Assembly (NCBI GenBank): GCA_958372075.1
Contig: CATXMO010000001.1
Span: forward strand, 68,797-132,796
Length of the DNA: 64,000 nt
Direction: 5' to 3'
Source: an uncultured Collinsella sp.
GTDB lineage: Bacteria > Actinomycetota > Coriobacteriia > Coriobacteriales > Coriobacteriaceae
Shown here: in pieces, positions 5,597-61,640 of the stretch
Numbering within the stretch: the first letter of the stretch is position 1
How the letters are laid out: the number at the start of each line of letters is the position of its first letter
Notes under the pieces: model-generated
Told to the model about the DNA's origin: nothing
Seen by the model: only the letters and a program-made list of their open reading frames with translations
The model's database searches: none
Program-made: the position numbers and the translations under genes

Positions 5597-5857
5597 ATGT
5601 GCCTTGCCGTTCCCGGTAAAGTGGTCAAACGCGACGACGACCTTAAGGCGACCGTCGACATGATGGGCATCGAGCGCCCCGTTTCGCTGCGCCTCGTGCC
5701 GACGGCACAGGTAGGCGACTATATTCTCGTGCACGCCGGCTTTGGCATTCAGATTGTCGACGAGCAGGAAGCCCAAGAGACACTCGAGCTCGTCAATACC
5801 ATGACCGAGCTGGCCAAAGAGGACCAACTCGCCACCAACCCAGCCGAGGCATACTAG
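5597..5857 (+). CDS. hypC: Hydrogenase maturation factor HypC
   Basis: N-terminal MCLAVP motif, 86 aa, AAGGGGA RBS. Confidence 0.9.
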   Translation: MCLAVPGKVVKRDDDLKATVDMMGIERPVSLRLVPTAQVGDYILVHAGFGIQIVDEQEAQETLELVNTMTELAKEDQLATNPAEAY

Positions 5858-6969
5858 TGGCGGCGGCGCAGCCGGTTCGCTCCGGTATCGACTTTTCGGC
5901 ATTTCGCGACCCCAAGCTGGCCCGCGAGCTCATCGATCGTATTCATGAGCTTGTCGGCAACCGCAGCATCAACCTTATGGAAGTCTGCGGTACGCATACC
6001 GTGAGCATTGGCCGCTATGGCTTTCGCTCCATTATGCCGACGGGGCTCAAACTGCTAAGCGGCCCGGGGTGCCCCGTTTGCGTCACCGCCAACCGCGACA
6101 TCGATCACGCAATCGCGCTTTCCAACATGGACGGCGCCATCATCACCACCTTTGGCGACATGATGCGCGTGCCCGGATCGTCCACCTCGCTTGCCGCGCA
6201 AAAGGCGGCGGGGCGCGACATCCGCATCGTCTACTCTCCGCTCGACGCACTCGACATTGCCGAGCAAAATCCCGAACGCCCGGTCATCTTTATGGGCGTC
6301 GGCTTTGAGACCACAACGCCCACCATTGCCGCCGCTATCCTGGAGGCCGACGCGCGCGGGCTCCAGAACTTCTCGGTCTACTGTGCTCACAAGACCACGC
6401 CGCCGGCTCTGCGTGCGATCTCCAACGACCCCGAGACCGCCATCGACGGCTTTATCCTGCCTGGTCACGTCGCTACCATCACAGGCCTGGCACCCTTTGG
6501 GTTTTTGGTCGATGAGTTCGAGACCCCCGGCGTAGTCACCGGGTTTGAGCCGGTCGATATCTTGCAGGGCATCTGCATGCTGGTCCAGATGATTGTCGAG
6601 CACAGGCCCGCAATCGACAACGCCTACCGCCGTGGCGTCAATGCAGACGGCAATCCCGTAGCGCGCCAGCTGGTCGAGCAGGTGTTTGAGCCATGCGACA
6701 CCACGTGGCGCGGGCTGGGGCCGATTGCGGCTTCGGGTCTTTCCATCCGACCCGAATTCGCGCGCTTTGATGCCGGCGCCCGCTTTGACGTGCCCGTTGA
6801 GGCGACGGTCGAGCCACGCGGGTGCCGCTGCGGCGACGTGCTTCGCGGAGCCATCACACCGAGCGACTGCCCGCTGTTCGGCCACGCATGTACGCCCGAA
6901 CACCCCGTCGGCCCCTGCATGGTGAGCTCCGAAGGCAGCTGCGCGGCGTACTTTAGATACCGCGACTAG
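5857..6969 (+). CDS. hypD: Hydrogenase maturation factor HypD
   Basis: CGTH, GPGCPVCV and C-terminal CPLF...C motifs. The start overlaps the hypC stop. Confidence 0.93.
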   Translation: MAAAQPVRSGIDFSAFRDPKLARELIDRIHELVGNRSINLMEVCGTHTVSIGRYGFRSIMPTGLKLLSGPGCPVCVTANRDIDHAIALSNMDGAIITTFGDMMRVPGSSTSLAAQKAAGRDIRIVYSPLDALDIAEQNPERPVIFMGVGFETTTPTIAAAILEADARGLQNFSVYCAHKTTPPALRAISNDPETAIDGFILPGHVATITGLAPFGFLVDEFETPGVVTGFEPVDILQGICMLVQMIVEHRPAIDNAYRRGVNADGNPVARQLVEQVFEPCDTTWRGLGPIAASGLSIRPEFARFDAGARFDVPVEATVEPRGCRCGDVLRGAITPSDCPLFGHACTPEHPVGPCMVSSEGSCAAYFRYRD

Positions 6970-9010: not shown

Positions 9011-9066
9011 TTCGGCCAAAAAACCGGGTCGCATTTTCCCGAGCATTTGATACGGCGTTGATACAA

Positions 9067-9140
9067 GGAGTGTCCCCAACTGCCGGCAGAAAAGGAACGT
9101 CCCCAAGTGCCGCCTCAATGACTACCATGGCAACGCCGCA
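9067..9140. repeat. Copy of the GTGTCCCCAACTGCCGGCAGAAAAGGAACGTCCCCAAGTGCCG / AATGACTACCATGGCAACGCCG dispersed repeat module
   Basis: Near-identical strings recur at 61510-61575, 57554-57596 (reverse complement) and 17990-18025. Confidence 0.7.
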
Positions 9141-55269: not shown

Positions 55270-57486
55270 ATGGAACAATTCCCGCAATCGAACTCGCGCA
55301 GCCGACGCCACGCGGGCGGCCAACAGGCGCCGCACGAACGTTCGCGCGCCAACCGCCAAACCACCGAAGCACGCCGCACTGCAGGCTCCCATCGCACGCC
55401 CGCCAACAAGGGCGCCCACGCCAGCAGCGCCGCAAAAGAGCAGACGCCCGCGCGCCCCAAATCTCGGTACATCCCCGCCCTCGACGGTCTGCGTACGCTC
55501 GCCGTCGTCGCAGTGGTGCTCTATCACCTCAACCTCACATGGGCACAGGGCGGCTTGCTTGGCGTCACGGTGTTCTTTGTGCTCTCGGGCTATCTGATCA
55601 CGCGCCTGCTTATCAACGAAATATCAAAGACTGGCCGCATCGACCTCAAGAGCTTCTGGATCCGCCGCATCCGCCGCCTGTTCCCCGCCGTGGTAACCGT
55701 CGTGGTGGTGACCTGCGCGCTGTGCACCGTCTTTAACCACGTGATGCTCACCAAAATGCGCCCCGACATCCTGCCGTCGCTACTGTTCGTTAATAACTGG
55801 TGGCAGATTCTGCAGGACGTTTCGTACTTTAACGCCTTGGGCGACCCTTCGCCGCTCACGCATTTTTGGTCGCTTGCCATCGAGGAACAGTTCTATCTAA
55901 TTTGGCCGCCGCTGCTGCTCGCCATGGTGTCTATGCATATGAGCAAGCCCAATACGCGCCGCGTGGTTCTGGTCCTCGCCGCCGTCTCCGCCATCGCCAT
56001 GATGGTGCTCTACAACCCCGCCACCGACCCCAGCCGCGTGTACTACGGCACCGACACCCGCGTGTTCTCGCTGCTGCTGGGCGCCTGGATGGCCTTTATC
56101 CCCGACCGCGACCTAGCGCCTGCGGGCCTTGTCCGCCATCTGGGGCTCGACCGACTGGCTGGCGCCGTCAAACGCGACAAGGACAAGACCAGTGAGCATG
56201 GTAAGGACAGTGGCAGCACGGCCGAAACCGAACAGGCCGCGTCGAGCGCACTCATGCGCTTTTGGTCCTCGCCCGCATCCATCGACCTGTTGGGCATTGT
56301 GGGTCTCCTCGGTCTTGCCGCCATGGTCGCGCTTACCAACGGCTATACCGCGTTTCAGTATCGCGGAGGTACGCTGCTGTGCTCTATCCTCACGCTGATG
56401 GTTATCGCGGCATGTGTGCAGCCCCAGGGCATGGTCGCACGGGCCTTGGCCGCCGAGCCGCTCGTATGGATCGGTAAGCGCTCCTACAGCATCTACCTGT
56501 GGCATTATCCGCTGCTGCTCCTCATGAACCCGGTCGCCAATATTAGCGACACGCCCTGGTGGCATTACATTTTGCAGGTACTGCTGGTGGTCGTCGCCGC
56601 CGAGTGCTCCTATCGCTTTATCGAGACGCCGTTTAGGAAGGGTGCTTTTGGGCGCACCGTTTCTGAGTTCCGCGACGGCACCACCACGCCCGCCGACTGG
56701 GTGCGCACGCATATTCCCACCTGCGCCGTTTGCGCCGTCGTACTTGTTGTGGCGTTGGGCGGCCTTGTCTTTGTGCCCGACACCTCCGCGCTGAGCGGCG
56801 AGGGCGCCGAAATCCTAAACAAGGAAGCTAAAAATACAAAGCCCCAGGACCAGCAGGCGGCCGACGACACCGATAAGGATGACGATGGCTTCCCCGATGG
56901 AGCCTACGACCTGTTAATGATCGGCGACTCCGTGTCGCTGCGCGCTGTCGATTCCTTTGACGGCGTGTTCCCCCACAGTCACATCGATGCCGAAAAGGGC
57001 CGCCAGTTCGATGCGGGCCGCACAACATTTGAGGCTTATCTCCAACAGAACCTCGCCGGCAAGATCGTAGTCTTTGCGCTGGGCACCAACGGCCTAGTGA
57101 CCGATGCCCAGATTGACGCCATCATGGCCGATGCCGGCGATCAGCGCACCGTCGTATTTGTAAACACGCGCAGCCCGCAGCCATGGGTCGGCGCCACCAA
57201 TCAGGCCATTGCCAACGCCGCCTCGCGCTATAAAAACGTTCGCGTTATCGACTGGTACGGATATAGCGCCAACCGCAACGATCTGTTCGACGGCGACGGC
57301 ACGCACCTTTCGAACGCGGGCGTGGCCGAGTACCTTAAGCTCATCCACGATGCCGTCAAGAAGGACCTGCCCGTGCATCCCGAGGATCACGTCAACGATC
57401 CGCAGCCGGCGGCCGTCAAGTCTGCCACCGACGCGCTCGTCAATGCGCTCGCTCTCAAGCCGCACAAGCTGGGCACCGACAAGTAA
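55270..57486 (+). CDS. Acyltransferase-3 (OatA-like O-acetyltransferase) with a C-terminal SGNH hydrolase domain
   Basis: AT3 membrane domain (LDGLRTLAVVAVVLYH, FFVLSGYLIT). The C-terminal region contains GDSVS. An ~80-aa Arg/Pro/Ala-rich N-terminal tail leaves the true start uncertain. Confidence 0.75.
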   Translation: MEQFPQSNSRSRRHAGGQQAPHERSRANRQTTEARRTAGSHRTPANKGAHASSAAKEQTPARPKSRYIPALDGLRTLAVVAVVLYHLNLTWAQGGLLGVTVFFVLSGYLITRLLINEISKTGRIDLKSFWIRRIRRLFPAVVTVVVVTCALCTVFNHVMLTKMRPDILPSLLFVNNWWQILQDVSYFNALGDPSPLTHFWSLAIEEQFYLIWPPLLLAMVSMHMSKPNTRRVVLVLAAVSAIAMMVLYNPATDPSRVYYGTDTRVFSLLLGAWMAFIPDRDLAPAGLVRHLGLDRLAGAVKRDKDKTSEHGKDSGSTAETEQAASSALMRFWSSPASIDLLGIVGLLGLAAMVALTNGYTAFQYRGGTLLCSILTLMVIAACVQPQGMVARALAAEPLVWIGKRSYSIYLWHYPLLLLMNPVANISDTPWWHYILQVLLVVVAAECSYRFIETPFRKGAFGRTVSEFRDGTTTPADWVRTHIPTCAVCAVVLVVALGGLVFVPDTSALSGEGAEILNKEAKNTKPQDQQAADDTDKDDDGFPDGAYDLLMIGDSVSLRAVDSFDGVFPHSHIDAEKGRQFDAGRTTFEAYLQQNLAGKIVVFALGTNGLVTDAQIDAIMADAGDQRTVVFVNTRSPQPWVGATNQAIANAASRYKNVRVIDWYGYSANRNDLFDGDGTHLSNAGVAEYLKLIHDAVKKDLPVHPEDHVNDPQPAAVKSATDALVNALALKPHKLGTDK

Positions 57487-57509
57487 CCTGCAGCGCAAAC
57501 TTCCCACAT

Positions 57510-57547
57510 CCGGAGGGGGTGCCTGCCACGGCAGGCACCCCCTCCGG
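57510..57547. repeat. Perfect 18-bp-stem hairpin downstream of the acyltransferase gene
   Basis: CCGGAGGGGGTGCCTGCC-ACG-GGCAGGCACCCCCTCCGG. No U-tract follows. Confidence 0.6.
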
Positions 57548-57553
57548 CAGTTA

Positions 57554-57596
57554 GGGACGTTCCTTATGTGCCGGCACCTAGGGACACTCCTGGCAC
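57554..57596. repeat. Reverse-complement copy of the GGAACGTCCC/GTGTCCC repeat module
   Basis: GGGACGTTCCTTATGTGCCGGCACCTAGGGACACTCCTGGCAC is the reverse complement of the module at 9067-9110. Confidence 0.65.
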
Positions 57597-57726
57597 AGCC
57601 GAGGAACGCCCTCCTTGCGACCGAATTCTGGGCGCCTCGCCACCCCGAGCGTTGTTTCCAAGCCCCACATCCGCAGCAAACAACCCAAAATCACTCTTTT
57701 CGAGCCGACTCCAAGAGGTCGTGGAC

Positions 57727-57938
57727 AAAAAGGGGCAAATATGAGTACTGTTACCATTTTAGTAGCAGGCAAAACCACCCAAAATGACGTCCGAGCGACC
57801 CCTACAACCCCCTAAAGCAGCCAACCTGACTGGTTTAAGACATATTGGAGCCAATTTTAATGAACATACTATCGGCTATGTCCATTATCTTCTTGGGTGT
57901 AAATGCTATTCACTTAGCAACAGTACTCATATTTGGCA
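57727..57938. mobile_element. AT-rich ~210-bp islet bounded by perfect 16-bp terminal inverted repeats (MITE-like)
   Basis: AAATATGAGTACTGTT (57728-57743) and AACAGTACTCATATTT (57919-57934). The interior is visibly AT-rich relative to the flanks. Contains small ORFs. Confidence 0.45.
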
Positions 57939-57964
57939 TTTTTTGTCCACTGCCATATAACTAA
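57860..57964 (+). CDS. Candidate 34-aa hydrophobic peptide (MNILSAMSIIFLGVNAIHLATVLIFGIFCPLPYN)
   Basis: ORF located within and at the 3' edge of the AT-rich islet (57727-57938). GGAG lies ~11 nt upstream. One predicted TM helix. Speculative. Confidence 0.2.
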   Translation: MNILSAMSIIFLGVNAIHLATVLIFGIFCPLPYN

Positions 57965-57974
57965 TGCCCTATAG

Positions 57975-58012
57975 CGGGCAAAAAACAGGCCGCAGTCCAT
58001 CGCTGCGGCCTG
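57975..58012 (-). terminator. Intrinsic terminator of mntH
   Basis: Minus strand: CAGGCCGCAG-CGATGGA-CTGCGGCCTG followed by TTTTTTGCC. Confidence 0.6.
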
Positions 58013-58032
58013 TTCGGAAGCAAAAGTGGGCG

Positions 58033-59295
58033 TTAAGCGCTGTAGCCCATCGCCTGCAGGACAAACATGACGACCGTGAGCACCGTAATCACGCCGATAG
58101 TCGCCCACGTGAGCACGTTCCATACGCGGCCGTTGCGGTTGGCGCCCATAATGTGACGGTCGGCGGCGATAACCACCTGGAACACCAGAACCACGGGCAG
58201 TAGCACGCCATTGATGACCTGCGAGGTCATCATAATCTGGAACAGATCGACGCCGGGCATAAGCACCAGCACGGCAGAGATGCCGATGATGGCCGTAATG
58301 ATGCCGCGATAGACCGGGGCCTCGTCCCAGCTGCGATCGGCACCGCGCTCCCAGCCAAATGCCTCGCAGATAGCGCTCGACGTAACGCCCGGCAGCACGC
58401 AGGCAGCCAAGAAACTCGCCGCGACCAGGCCCGAGGCAAACAATACCGTAGACCACTGACCCGCAATAGGCTCCAGCGCGCGGGCAGCATCGGCAGCATC
58501 GCTAATCTGAATACCCGCCGGGAACAGCACCGTACCGGTCGTAATGATAATAAAGCCGGCAATGACATCAGCGGCAAGCGAGCCGCTCACGGTATCGATG
58601 CGCTGCAGCACGATATCGTCCTCGCCCGCGTTCTTATCGACCACGTTGTTCTGCGCCAAGAAAATCATCCACGGCGCGATGGTGGTACCGATCGTTGCGA
58701 CCACGAGCGACACGTAGCTGGGGTCATTTTGAATGTTAGGCACGACCAGGTCGACCGCGACCTCACCCCAGTTGGGGCCAGCCAAAAACGCGGCGACGAT
58801 ATAGGTCACAAACACGCAGCTCACCAGCAGTAGAATCTTCTCGATGCGCTGGAAACTACCCGACATGGTAAGCATCCATACCAGCAGCGCCACCAACGGC
58901 ACCGAGATGCTCGCCGGCACGCCAAAGAGAGCAAGACCGCTGGCGATGCCCGCAAACTCCGAAATGGTCACAGCCGTGTTGGCGATCAACAGCGCCGCCA
59001 TAGCAAGTACACTCTTGCGCACGCCAAAGCGCTCGCGAATGAGCGATGCCAGGCCCTTGCCCGTGACGCAGCCGCAGCGCGCCGCGGTCTCCTGCGTCAC
59101 GATGAGCAGCACGGTCATGACAGGAAGCATCCACAGCATCTTGTAGCCATAGCTGGCGCCCGCGCTGGAATACGTTGCAATGCCGCCGGCATCATTGCCC
59201 GAAAGCGCCGCCAACAGACCGGGACCCATAGCGCCAAAGATGGCCGCGATGGTCAGCTTTTGCTTGGTGCCCGACTTTTGCTTGGTATTTTGCAC
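58033..59295 (-). CDS. mntH: NRAMP-family divalent metal (Mn2+/Fe2+) transporter
   Basis: GPGLLAALSGNDAGG and the MntH-like TM pattern. Start proposed at GTG 59295 after AGGTGG, which avoids overlap with the upstream gene. The track ORF runs to 59358. Confidence 0.8.
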   Translation of the reverse strand: MQNTKQKSGTKQKLTIAAIFGAMGPGLLAALSGNDAGGIATYSSAGASYGYKMLWMLPVMTVLLIVTQETAARCGCVTGKGLASLIRERFGVRKSVLAMAALLIANTAVTISEFAGIASGLALFGVPASISVPLVALLVWMLTMSGSFQRIEKILLLVSCVFVTYIVAAFLAGPNWGEVAVDLVVPNIQNDPSYVSLVVATIGTTIAPWMIFLAQNNVVDKNAGEDDIVLQRIDTVSGSLAADVIAGFIIITTGTVLFPAGIQISDAADAARALEPIAGQWSTVLFASGLVAASFLAACVLPGVTSSAICEAFGWERGADRSWDEAPVYRGIITAIIGISAVLVLMPGVDLFQIMMTSQVINGVLLPVVLVFQVVIAADRHIMGANRNGRVWNVLTWATIGVITVLTVVMFVLQAMGYSA

Positions 59296-59303
59296 GCGAC
59301 CAC

Positions 59304-61148
59304 CTAACCCATGACTGACATGGCGAGCAGCACCGCGGCGATGCAATACGCCACACACGAGATCATGACGGCAATGACGTTCATGGCGGTGCCCGACGTG
59401 TTGAGGTCATGCTCGTCACGCCAGAACAGCACCATCAGGTAAATCACGGCACTCATGTTGCCAACCAGGCAAATGATGGCGGCAATGTTAAAGCAGCCGG
59501 TAAAGAGCTGCTCCTCAAACATAGAGGCATCGGGGAATGCAGCGGTGCGCACCAGCTGGGCGCACAGGTAGGTCACGAGTGACAGAATCAGGCCCATGCC
59601 CGTGCTCTGGAAGAAGAATCCCAGATACGGCTTGGGCTCGTCGTCGTGACCGTCATACTCCAGGAAGTAGTTCTTGACGAACGACACCATGCGCGAGGCC
59701 GCCAGCAGCACGAGCGGCATGGCGCACATGGGGAACACCACCAGATGCGCGGAGCCGAGCGCCGTTCCCAGCACGGTCGCCATGATGCACGATGCGATGC
59801 CCCATACAACAACCCAGTACTGACGATGCACGAACCAGCTGAGCACGTTCGTCGAGTCGTCCGACGCGCTATCGCCCGAGCCGACACCGGCGATCTGCAG
59901 GTCCTCCTGATGCTCCTCGGCGATAACGTCCATGGCGTCGTCGAAGGTCACGATACCAAGGATATGACGGTTCTCGTCGCAGACAGGGATGGCAACCAGG
60001 TCGTACTTGGTCATCTCGTCCGTCACGTCTTCCTGGTCCTCGTCGGGCGACACATAGACCAGGTCGCGATAGGCCAACTGACCCAGCGTGGCGTCGCGGT
60101 CGGCTACGATCAGCGTGCGCAGCGAAAGCACGCCGGTCAGCATGCCACTCGGATCCTCGGTATAGACGTAATAGACGCTCTCGAAGTCCTCGTCGAGCTC
60201 GCGAATCGCCTCGATGGCGTCACCGACCGTTGCCGTGGCGGGCAGGGAGACAAACTCCGAGGTCATGATGCGGCCGGCGGTGTTGTCCTCATACCCCAGC
60301 AGGTTACGAATCGCCTTCTCCTCCTTGACGCCCATCAGGCGCAGGAGCTTCTCGGCCTTCTCGTAATCAAGCTCGTCGATCAGGTCGGCAGCGTCGTCCG
60401 GGTCCATCATGGCCAGCATCGACGATGCGTCCGTGTCGGACAGGCCCTCGAGCATCTCGGTCATAAGCTCGTCGTCATCGAACTCCGAGATAGCTTCGGC
60501 TGCCTGGGCGGTATCGAGCTGCGCAAACACCTGCGCACGTAGGCGCGGGTCGAGCTGCTCGATAATGTCGGCGATGTCGGCAGGGTGCAGCTCGCCGAGC
60601 GTCTTGTGCGACACCGAGAGTTGGATGTTTTTAGTCGAGCGGTCGAGCAGGTCCATGTAGGACCAAGCGATGATGTCCTCGCTGAGCGGCTTGCCCAGGT
60701 GCTTCATAAAGCCCTCGACGACGTGCTCGAGTGCGGGGCTGATCGCGCGCAGCAGACCGCGGGCACCGACCTCGGCACCCAACAGGCGCAGCTGGTTTTC
60801 GCCCGACATGGAAAACTTGATGTCGTTGACGCGCACGACCTTCATGCCCTGCGTGTCGACGATCTGCTTATTGAGCACGTCGCGCGCCAGCAGGAGCTCG
60901 GTCGGCTGCAGGTACGAGAAGCGAATATTGGTGGCAGACGTGTTGAGATACACGCCCGTCTCGTCGATACGGTCGACCCATTTGCGCCAGCTGATCATAA
61001 ACGGCGTCTTGCCGGGGCCGCGGAACGCGAGCGACGTCACGTGCGGAAAAACTTCGCCGGTAGCAATGCCAAAATCGTTGACCACGCCGAGCTTTTCGCC
61101 GTCGACGTCCAAGACCGGCAATTTGAGCATCTCACTCAGATAATTCAA
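59304..61148 (-). CDS. MgtE-N/CBS-pair membrane protein with PRC-barrel-like N-terminal domains (putative divalent-cation transporter or regulator)
   Basis: N-terminal PRC-barrel-like repeats. An MgtE_N-like acidic helical region (DPDDAADLIDELD). A CBS pair. A ~5-TM C-terminal domain. Confidence 0.5.
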   Translation of the reverse strand: MNYLSEMLKLPVLDVDGEKLGVVNDFGIATGEVFPHVTSLAFRGPGKTPFMISWRKWVDRIDETGVYLNTSATNIRFSYLQPTELLLARDVLNKQIVDTQGMKVVRVNDIKFSMSGENQLRLLGAEVGARGLLRAISPALEHVVEGFMKHLGKPLSEDIIAWSYMDLLDRSTKNIQLSVSHKTLGELHPADIADIIEQLDPRLRAQVFAQLDTAQAAEAISEFDDDELMTEMLEGLSDTDASSMLAMMDPDDAADLIDELDYEKAEKLLRLMGVKEEKAIRNLLGYEDNTAGRIMTSEFVSLPATATVGDAIEAIRELDEDFESVYYVYTEDPSGMLTGVLSLRTLIVADRDATLGQLAYRDLVYVSPDEDQEDVTDEMTKYDLVAIPVCDENRHILGIVTFDDAMDVIAEEHQEDLQIAGVGSGDSASDDSTNVLSWFVHRQYWVVVWGIASCIMATVLGTALGSAHLVVFPMCAMPLVLLAASRMVSFVKNYFLEYDGHDDEPKPYLGFFFQSTGMGLILSLVTYLCAQLVRTAAFPDASMFEEQLFTGCFNIAAIICLVGNMSAVIYLMVLFWRDEHDLNTSGTAMNVIAVMISCVAYCIAAVLLAMSVMG

Positions 61149-61442: not shown

Positions 61443-61640
61443 CCCTTGGGGACGTTCTTAAACGACTAGTCGTCGGGGACGCTCTTTGCGAGCGACAGAA
61501 AAGGACTGCCCAAACTGCCGGCAAAAAAGGAACGTCCCCAAGTGCCGGCCGTTGGGGACAGTCCCCAAGTGCCGAGTTTTCGCAAGACTGTCCCACATGA
61601 CTACTCGTTTAAGCACGTCCCCGATGACTACTCTGTGGTG
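61443..61640. repeat. Cluster of A-unit and GGAACGTCCCCAAGTGCCG modules. The 3' end of the deacetylase gene lies inside it
   Basis: GGGGACGTTCTTAAACGACTAGTCG (reverse-complement A-unit), GGAACGTCCCCAAGTGCCGGCCGTTGGGGACAGTCCCCAAGTGCCG and ACTCGTTTAAGCACGTCCCCGATGACTAC. The deacetylase stop codon is supplied by the last unit. Confidence 0.7.

Follow-up and report, generated by a model that had tools for sequence, protein, structure and literature searches.

An AT-rich islet of Collinsella DNA, lying between an acyltransferase gene and an NRAMP gene, is probably (we put the chance at roughly 0.7) a member of a family of small, non-coding palindromic repeats that is specific to Collinsella and resembles MITEs and REPINs. 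Collinsella is an abundant and heavily split genus of the human gut in which little mobile or repetitive DNA has been described, and the family is apparently undescribed so far (no repeat family of Collinsella is described in the full-text literature searched). The element is missing from about one sixth of close relatives at this site, and the cores of its two inverted arms are 5-10 times more conserved than its interior among orthologous copies.

Anatomy of the islet and its dispersed family

The window, by which we mean the whole 64,000-nucleotide stretch of DNA that was analysed, is Collinsella DNA with a GC content near 0.60. An earlier note made from this sequence had described a sharp drop in base composition at the acyltransferase-NRAMP junction, and windowed GC content (200-nt windows) confirms it, at 0.42-0.46 across 57700-57999 against about 0.58-0.66 around it. 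The 16-mer AAATATGAGTACTGTT is found at 57737-57752 on the forward strand and at 57919-57934 on the reverse strand; these are its only two matches in 64 kb with up to three mismatches tolerated (chance expectation 0.12), and adding the neighbouring C extends the perfect inverted repeat to 17 bp. The note had taken the 16-bp repeats for the termini of an islet of about 210 bp. The repeat is indeed perfect, but its position is subterminal: it forms the core of imperfect 47-nt arms (57721-57767 and 57904-57950, 81% complementary by repeat finding) that bound a 230-bp unit, and what relatives either have or lack is a larger unit still, of 253 bp (57721-57973).

Each strand of the islet folds as one long hairpin, with -75.9 kcal/mol (z -4.6) for the forward and -99.9 kcal/mol (z -8.3) for the reverse strand. 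The two hairpins that had been said to flank the islet are both there (Table 1). The perfect 18-bp hairpin following the acyltransferase gene is absent from some relatives (e.g. L101), and the NRAMP terminator, with its A6/T6 run, is kept in filled and empty alleles alike. A scan of Rfam 15 returned no family at the islet, the top element matches scoring 15-16 bits against gathering thresholds of 45-56, and a promoter scan of 57300-58200 returned no promoter-like (sigma-70-like) site.

Table 1. Features of the acyltransferase-NRAMP junction, in window coordinates.
Feature	Positions	Strand	Remarks
Acyltransferase gene	55270-57486	+	Left neighbour of islet
Perfect 18-bp hairpin after acyltransferase gene	57510-57547	+	Outside the element
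Left tip ('box 1') GTGGACAAAAAG, direct-repeat copy A	57721-57732	+	Family tip consensus GTGGnCAAAAAA
Left arm core	57733-57768	+	3-nt variable spacer, invariant CAAATATGAGTACTGTTACC, small local hairpin CTGTTAC-N7-GTAGCAG
24-aa ORF from arm ATG	57741-57815	+	ATG at 57741; judged no gene
Variable interior	57769-57903		AT-rich, partly self-complementary, hairpin AATGAACATA...TATGTCCATT; part of the long hairpin fold
34-aa ORF	57860-57964	+	ATG at 57860, stop ends at 57964; judged no gene
Right arm	57904-57950	-	Core 57919-57938; tip copy B TTTTTTGTCCAC at 57939-57950; family consensus GCAACAGTACTCATATTTGGCATTTTTTGnCCAC
23-bp tail TGCCATATAACTAATGCCCTATA	57951-57973		Missing with the arms in empty alleles
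Direct-repeat copy C GCGGGCAAAAAA	57974-57985	+	T-tract of NRAMP terminator on - strand
NRAMP intrinsic terminator hairpin	57984-58014	-	Perfect 12-bp stems, then T6 on - strand
NRAMP gene	58033-59358	-	Right neighbour of islet

An exact search with the 17-mer core, using one genome per species, returned at least 120 stretches, and among the matches listed nearly all are from Collinsella or Coriobacteriaceae. When the window region was used as a BLAST query, 17 of the matches listed shared the window flanks, and the others matched only 57720-57768 and 57904-57950. A profile of the arms found a single copy within the 64-kb window and at least 232 arms in at least 121 sources, almost all of them in inverted pairs spaced 209-231 bp. 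Clustering by flanks placed them at no fewer than 14 distinct intergenic sites, each common to several Collinsella lineages, and we show that copies at one site have been inherited vertically across many of these lineages. Five assemblies contain two different sites apiece and a 900-kb C. aerofaciens record gives seven arm matches, which indirectly suggests roughly 10-15 copies per genome. The proposal of a miniature element has therefore held up, in that the islet belongs to a dispersed inverted-repeat family whose copies are all AT-rich (mean GC 0.40) and shows presence/absence variation at its own site.

The arms are nearly invariant. Among 89 copies from at least 14 sites, the left arm has the consensus GTGGnCAAAAAA-nnn-CAAATATGAGTACTGTyACCnnTTTAGTArCAGC, of which GTGGnCAAAAAA is shared by both tips, with a small local hairpin inside it (CTGTyAC-N7-GTrrCAG); the right arm consensus is GCAACAGTACTCATATTTG-nnn-TTTTTTGnCCAC. 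The interior of ~135 nt is unalignable between sites and usually contains a strong, site-specific hairpin. The hairpin formed by each copy as a whole is very stable on either strand (-59 to -124 kcal/mol), and the better-folding strand varies, with seven clusters favouring one and four the other.

Some copies also have a tail, a 23-nt motif (TATAGGGGGTTAGTTATAT) that always reads towards the neighbouring arm. Of its 106 matches, 93 are no more than 40 nt from an arm tip and 11 are inside elements, and it is never seen away from family members. The tail occurs at three to five of the at least 14 sites, being found outside the right tip at three (the window, c0b and c5) and inside the element at two (c4 and c10). 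It may be a promoter, an extra binding site or the remnant of an older, longer end. At tail-less sites the inverted repeat runs 4-8 nt past GTGG in site-specific sequence.

All ten sites examined are intergenic with at least one gene 3' end adjoining, and five of them separate convergent genes. Apart from an IS3-type transposase 580 nt from one site, the neighbours are all housekeeping genes, and on these grounds the flanking genes were rejected as partner enzymes. Empty sites of other family members were sought in the window through their flanks, and none was found; neither were any found for a second locus among DAHP synthase homologues, where distant species have other neighbours and close ones are filled.

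A search of phage sequences gave no match to the element. IMG/VR yielded seven real, complete copies (L212, L218, L219, L227, L228, L233, L234) on Collinsella-like contigs that are classed as viral and have a GC content of 0.61-0.68, most of them matching site c1, beside a tRNA-like sequence; these contigs may be prophage borders that include host DNA, and the remaining 20 IMG/VR matches to the 16-mer are chance matches on low-GC contigs. Carriage by phages or plasmids was rejected, the lone 'plasmid' match being a 900-kb chromosome-like record. This record, NZ_OY725717.1 (L236, L237), is deposited as 'plasmid 6' of C. aerofaciens TSDC17.2-1.1, carries housekeeping genes (DAHP synthase, raiA and ricT), and looks like a chromosome segment or secondary replicon rather than a plasmid. 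Typical Collinsella copies with their flanks were also seen in bins labelled Methanobrevibacter smithii and Alloprevotella sp. (L084, L086), labels that are probably due to bin contamination.

Metagenome contigs often stop within a few hundred bases past NRAMP, in or beside the element or an adjacent insertion sequence (L122, L127, L131, L138, L141, L142, L150-L152, L155, L156, L159, L160, L165, L171, L173, L179, L193, L194, L197). These stops look like repeat-induced assembly breaks, the family being one that breaks metagenome assemblies at fixed places.

Filled and empty alleles at the window site

Insertion polymorphism among relatives, which the earlier note had named as a check on its proposal, is present. 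A metagenome scan with the NRAMP protein gave 80 loci (at least 98% amino-acid identity), and the 96 window-site sequences from metagenome and genome loci comprise 69 filled and 16 empty alleles and 11 others, which are truncated or partly deleted or have an insertion sequence within them. The family thus marks strain-level presence/absence variation.

The empty alleles lack exactly the 253-bp unit and retain a single copy of a 12-bp direct repeat, GYGGRCAAAAAA, between ...GGTC and CAGGCC..., of which filled alleles have two imperfect copies, A and C, bounding the unit (Table 1). In NRAMP orientation, the empty allele reads ...CTGCGGCCTG-TTTTTTGCCCAC-GACCTCTTGG..., and the filled allele reads ...TTTTTTGCCCGC, followed by the tail, right arm, interior and left arm ending TTTTTGTCCAC, and then GACCTCTTGG.... 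Copy A always has the tip sequence of the element (GTGGRC), and copy C always has another form (GCGGGC, GCAGAC and similar) that doubles as the T-tract of the NRAMP terminator. The 12-mer of the empty alleles is mostly A-like, C-like in three sequences (L138, L148, L163) and chimeric in one (L175). An ordinary 12-bp target-site duplication was considered and rejected, because the element would then lose its terminal repeats and because copy A always matches tip B, not copy C. No target-site duplication was found at the other sites either, the copies there having no flanking direct repeats.

In a tree built from the adjoining 1.1 kb of NRAMP, the root reconstructs as filled and the empty alleles are scattered, most of them with filled nearest neighbours, giving at least 11 state changes, a count that inter-strain recombination could inflate. 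Because the empty alleles keep ~20 nt that resemble one end of the element (AAGAGGTC plus GYGGRCAAAAAA, as against AAGGGGCn plus GTGGnCAAAAAA in the family), we read them as repeated deletions between A and C. The likeness of the 12-bp direct repeat to the element tip means that they may be deletion footprints rather than virgin targets, and we do not take them as proof of recent insertion at this site. Long palindromes stimulate deletion between direct repeats. Here, the long hairpin would bring copies A and C close together, and recurrent loss would then proceed by slipped-strand or recombinational deletion between them.

Several window-site sequences are altered in other ways. A partial deletion in L154 (3660-3900) has spared copy C, the tail and a degenerate tip and nothing else, beyond which comes a different hairpin of terminator-like form; one in L171 (3660-3953) has taken out the interior together with the left arm and some 50 bp of flank. 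Five sequences (L100, L103, L120, L068, L101) have interiors very different from that of the window at the orthologous site, with flanks about 90% identical and the same arms, which suggests replacement by recombination through the arms or independent re-insertion.

One inverted-repeat consensus shared by many loci, with the repeats under selection and variable interiors of ~200 bp between them, is also the layout of invertible DNA switches (invertons), in which a master invertase would flip the interior between the arms at many loci. The Mpi invertase flips Bacteroides fragilis promoters at many loci in this way, and the Mpi regions have segments of about the same size. At the window site, however, the orientation is fixed: in every filled sequence the profile scores low on the arm near NRAMP and high on the far one, and 46 window-site sequences align end to end in one orientation only. 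Further, the family occupies gene 3' ends, half of the sites examined are between convergent genes, leaving a promoter switch nothing to drive, and no invertase was found, with no recombinase gene adjoining any site. We have rejected the switch on account of the fixed orientation and regard it as highly improbable.

Constraint on the arms and candidate functions

To compare rates within the element, we used 41 distinct orthologous sequences that align end to end with the window. Nucleotide diversity is 0.214 in the interior, close to the values for the intergenic DNA to the left (0.200) and for third codon positions of the two flanking genes (0.18-0.20), and it falls to 0.042 in the left and 0.019 in the right arm core, as against 0.008-0.05 at first and second codon positions, so that conservation of the arms resembles that of protein-coding sequence. 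In 35 metagenome sequences that were picked by their NRAMP protein, not by their arms, the cores give 0.044 and 0.022 and the interior 0.229. Since it evolves at the synonymous rate, the interior has been accumulating changes in place over the same span of time as the neighbouring genes. These figures show arm cores under strong purifying selection in place, on either side of an interior that drifts neutrally.

The continuing conservation of the arms suggests that some protein still reads them, whether a host factor or the enzyme that mobilises the element. Such selection would not be expected on the arms of a relic that is immobile and merely selfish, which, like the low copy number, counts against the reading of the islet as a MITE/REPIN-like repeat that we prefer. 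The site is of interest in that a single orthologous locus displays neutral decay of the interior beside strong constraint on the arms, raising the question of what reads them.

Compensatory change is seen in 2 of the 24 predicted arm pairs (89 copies), and tip position 5, which is hypervariable, is paired in 62 of the 89 copies; the arms are almost invariant and so yield no covariation signal. The constraint is on the sequence of the arms, not on their pairing. A structured RNA supported by covariation was rejected, given the lack of a covariation signal and a more stable strand that differs between sites.

Selection on the arms could reflect co-option by the host as a cis element, in which protein-binding arms or a 3'-UTR hairpin would shape termination or mRNA stability and the mobile origin would be secondary. 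This role, which is like that proposed for REP/BIME, ERIC and Correia elements, is a possibility that we consider unlikely as the principal explanation, and it overlaps with the mobile-element explanation rather than excluding it. Arm cores that are 5-10 times better conserved than neutral sites at an orthologous position would be expected of such an element, as would a gene 3' end next to every site examined, the stable hairpin that each copy forms on either strand, and the strong local hairpin of many interiors, which at c0b is terminator-like on one strand in 12 of 12 copies. However, c0b is the only site that passes the strict terminator scan; most clusters fail it, and a universal internal terminator was rejected for this reason. 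The window copy is without an internal terminator-like hairpin, and both of its neighbour genes already have hairpins of their own. Other points also run counter to a cis role: it is sequence and not pairing that is conserved, no strand is consistently the better-folding one, a structural RNA role would be insufficient by itself to account for 36 invariant nucleotides, and 16 relatives do without the element.

The same interior hairpins, together with the tail, could instead belong to a family of small RNA genes, with the tail motif as promoter, the interior hairpin as terminator and a product of ~100 nt having the common 5' sequence GUGGnCAAAAAAUGCCAAAUAUGAGUACUG.... The invariable direction of the tail motif, pointing to the neighbouring arm, would suit such genes, and at several sites the interior hairpin is followed by TTTTATTG on that strand, the strand on which c0b passes the terminator scan. 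We nevertheless think this reading improbable: the tail is confined to a minority of the sites, the terminator scan is failed by most clusters, the window copy has neither a sigma-70-like promoter nor an Rfam match, and the equal conservation of the second arm would go unexplained.

A third functional reading comes from the earlier note, which had seen in the islet a 34-aa hydrophobic peptide of the type I toxin kind and a second short frame beginning at the left repeat. Both exist as frames (Table 1). The larger has a hydrophobic product, a version of 28 to 45 aa is kept in many window-site orthologues, and the islet shares with the type I loci Hok/Sok, Ldr, Fst, TisB and AapA/IsoA a short hydrophobic ORF within a structured, multi-copy intergenic segment. 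Some type I toxin mRNAs also show long-range 5'-3' pairing, a further point in favour. In contrast to those loci, the Collinsella ORF is unconserved between copies and has no coding pattern, and it is the two inverted arms that are conserved. The hydrophobic C-terminal half is no more than the T-rich right arm translated in one frame, and the peptide is a chance product of that arm; the arm being conserved and T-rich, this frame gives ...ATVLIFGIFCP... in every copy.

The start codon of the window is found in few orthologues, and many others have a different ATG (MFIIFL...). L064, L101 and L112 lack any ATG in this frame, an insertion sequence interrupts it in L078, and in most copies at other sites it is startless. 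The frame from the arm ATG (MSTVT...) varies between 6 and 70 aa, with only its arm-encoded residues conserved. Diversities at the three codon positions of the putative ORF are 0.13/0.22/0.23 in its interior part and 0.12/0.12/0.13 in its arm part, and no excess of third-position substitutions is seen among the 41 orthologues. The best Pfam E-values (0.04-0.19) are to unrelated DUFs and fall below the cut-off, NCBIfam returned nothing, and RefSeq annotates no gene in the two copies examined (NZ_OY725717.1). Loss of the ORF, the lack of codon periodicity and the lack of a family match led us to reject the toxin, which strikes us as barely credible. The toxin/antisense-RNA locus proposed in the earlier note is likewise unsupported. 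What the earlier note had named as telling against it, an unconserved peptide in conserved DNA, is indeed found for the arms. Copies of the element could be mistaken for small-protein or toxin genes in ORF-based screens.

Known repeat systems, possible origin and associated insertion sequences

Bacterial MITEs such as the Correia/NEMIS elements of Neisseria, RUP of Streptococcus pneumoniae and ERIC/IRU of enterobacteria are likewise about 100-300 bp long, non-coding and AT-rich, with inverted-repeat ends, a long hairpin, intergenic dispersal that is often by gene ends, and presence/absence among strains. The Collinsella element has the defining features of small size, lack of coding capacity, inverted repeats, multiple dispersed copies and presence/absence polymorphism, and it departs from MITEs in lacking a target-site duplication of fixed length: Correia and RUP duplicate TA, whereas the Collinsella element has no demonstrable duplication. 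Other differences are its unusually long arms (about 47 nt), its low copy number (about 10-15), purifying selection on the arms at orthologous sites while the interior drifts, and the lack, across the roughly 1.5 Mb of Collinsella sequence searched, of any parent insertion sequence whose ends match.

REPINs, which are REP doublets mobilised by RAYT, a single-copy domesticated IS200-like transposase (Bertels and Rainey, PMC3116915, PMC3337134), share with the Collinsella family an extragenic pair of conserved inverted blocks that forms a hairpin around a variable spacer, the lack of a target-site duplication, vertical inheritance with persistence at orthologous sites, and conserved recognition sequences. 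The Collinsella arms are longer (47 nt versus about 25 nt), as is the spacer (about 135 nt versus a few nt), the tip is GTGGnC with no GTAG-type 5' motif, and copies number tens at most, or about 10-15 per genome, versus tens to hundreds. Further, no RAYT gene flanked by the repeats was seen in the sequence examined, the lone IS200-type tnpA (in L078) being an ordinary nested insertion, and the host is a member of the Coriobacteriia, not a proteobacterium.

Two-part arms with a tip that tolerates variation and an invariant subterminal core are typical of ends that a transposase or recombinase would read. We suggest that the family spread in the past through such an enzyme, acting in trans and recognising the two-part arms, and that insertion took place without an ordinary target-site duplication. 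The lack of a duplication argues against a classical DDE cut-and-paste parent, and we infer that a single-strand, hairpin-dependent or site-specific mechanism would fit better. A search of about 1.5 Mb of Collinsella DNA turned up no autonomous element that has these arms as its ends. Elements of IS256 and IS200 type were rejected as autonomous parents, their ends being unrelated and accompanied by duplications or hairpins of their own.

More speculatively, and in our view rather doubtfully, the arms might be sites of a resident single-copy recombinase or DNA-binding protein, making the family a host-maintained, vertically inherited system of REPIN-RAYT type in Coriobacteriia but differently built, with two-part arms of 47 nt around a long variable spacer and a tail in some copies, whose hairpins would also concentrate IS256-type insertions in harmless intergenic DNA. 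A major new question would arise only if a dedicated partner protein exists. The two features that most merit pursuit are the selection on the arms in place and the association with IS256-type insertion sequences.

This association is seen in 19 of 200 loci, which carry an IS256-type insertion sequence either within the palindromic element or no more than about 60 bp away (L136, L007, L022, L032, L047, L054, L058, L088, L103, L105, L116, L117, L127, L130, L152, L155, L165, L187, L194). The insertions occupy many positions at several genomic sites, and no copy was seen elsewhere in those loci. The example in L136 (3742-5248) is 1,507 bp long, encodes a 444-aa transposase of the IS256 family, has ends of its own (GGTAGCGCACAGAGATGTGGTGTAAGAG) and generates an 8-bp duplication (GTTAGTTA). 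Such a distribution suggests that AT-rich hairpins are preferred landing pads for IS256-type elements, the palindromic family being one that attracts insertion sequences. In L078, the interior of the window-element orthologue itself contains a nested IS200-type element (5834-6596) that has hairpin ends and a gene for a Y1 HUH transposase, and a tblastn search with this transposase found it in that locus alone.

A second dispersed repeat accompanies the palindromic family. Its 21-nt unit, CCGGCAnTTrGGGACryTCCT, is often paired 27 nt apart and occurs in the window at 57544-57564 and 57571-57591 and, on the reverse strand, at 9066-9113 and 61528-61548. It is present in 73 of about 200 loci, at a median distance of 155 bp from an arm of the palindromic element, and may be a separate REP-like family.
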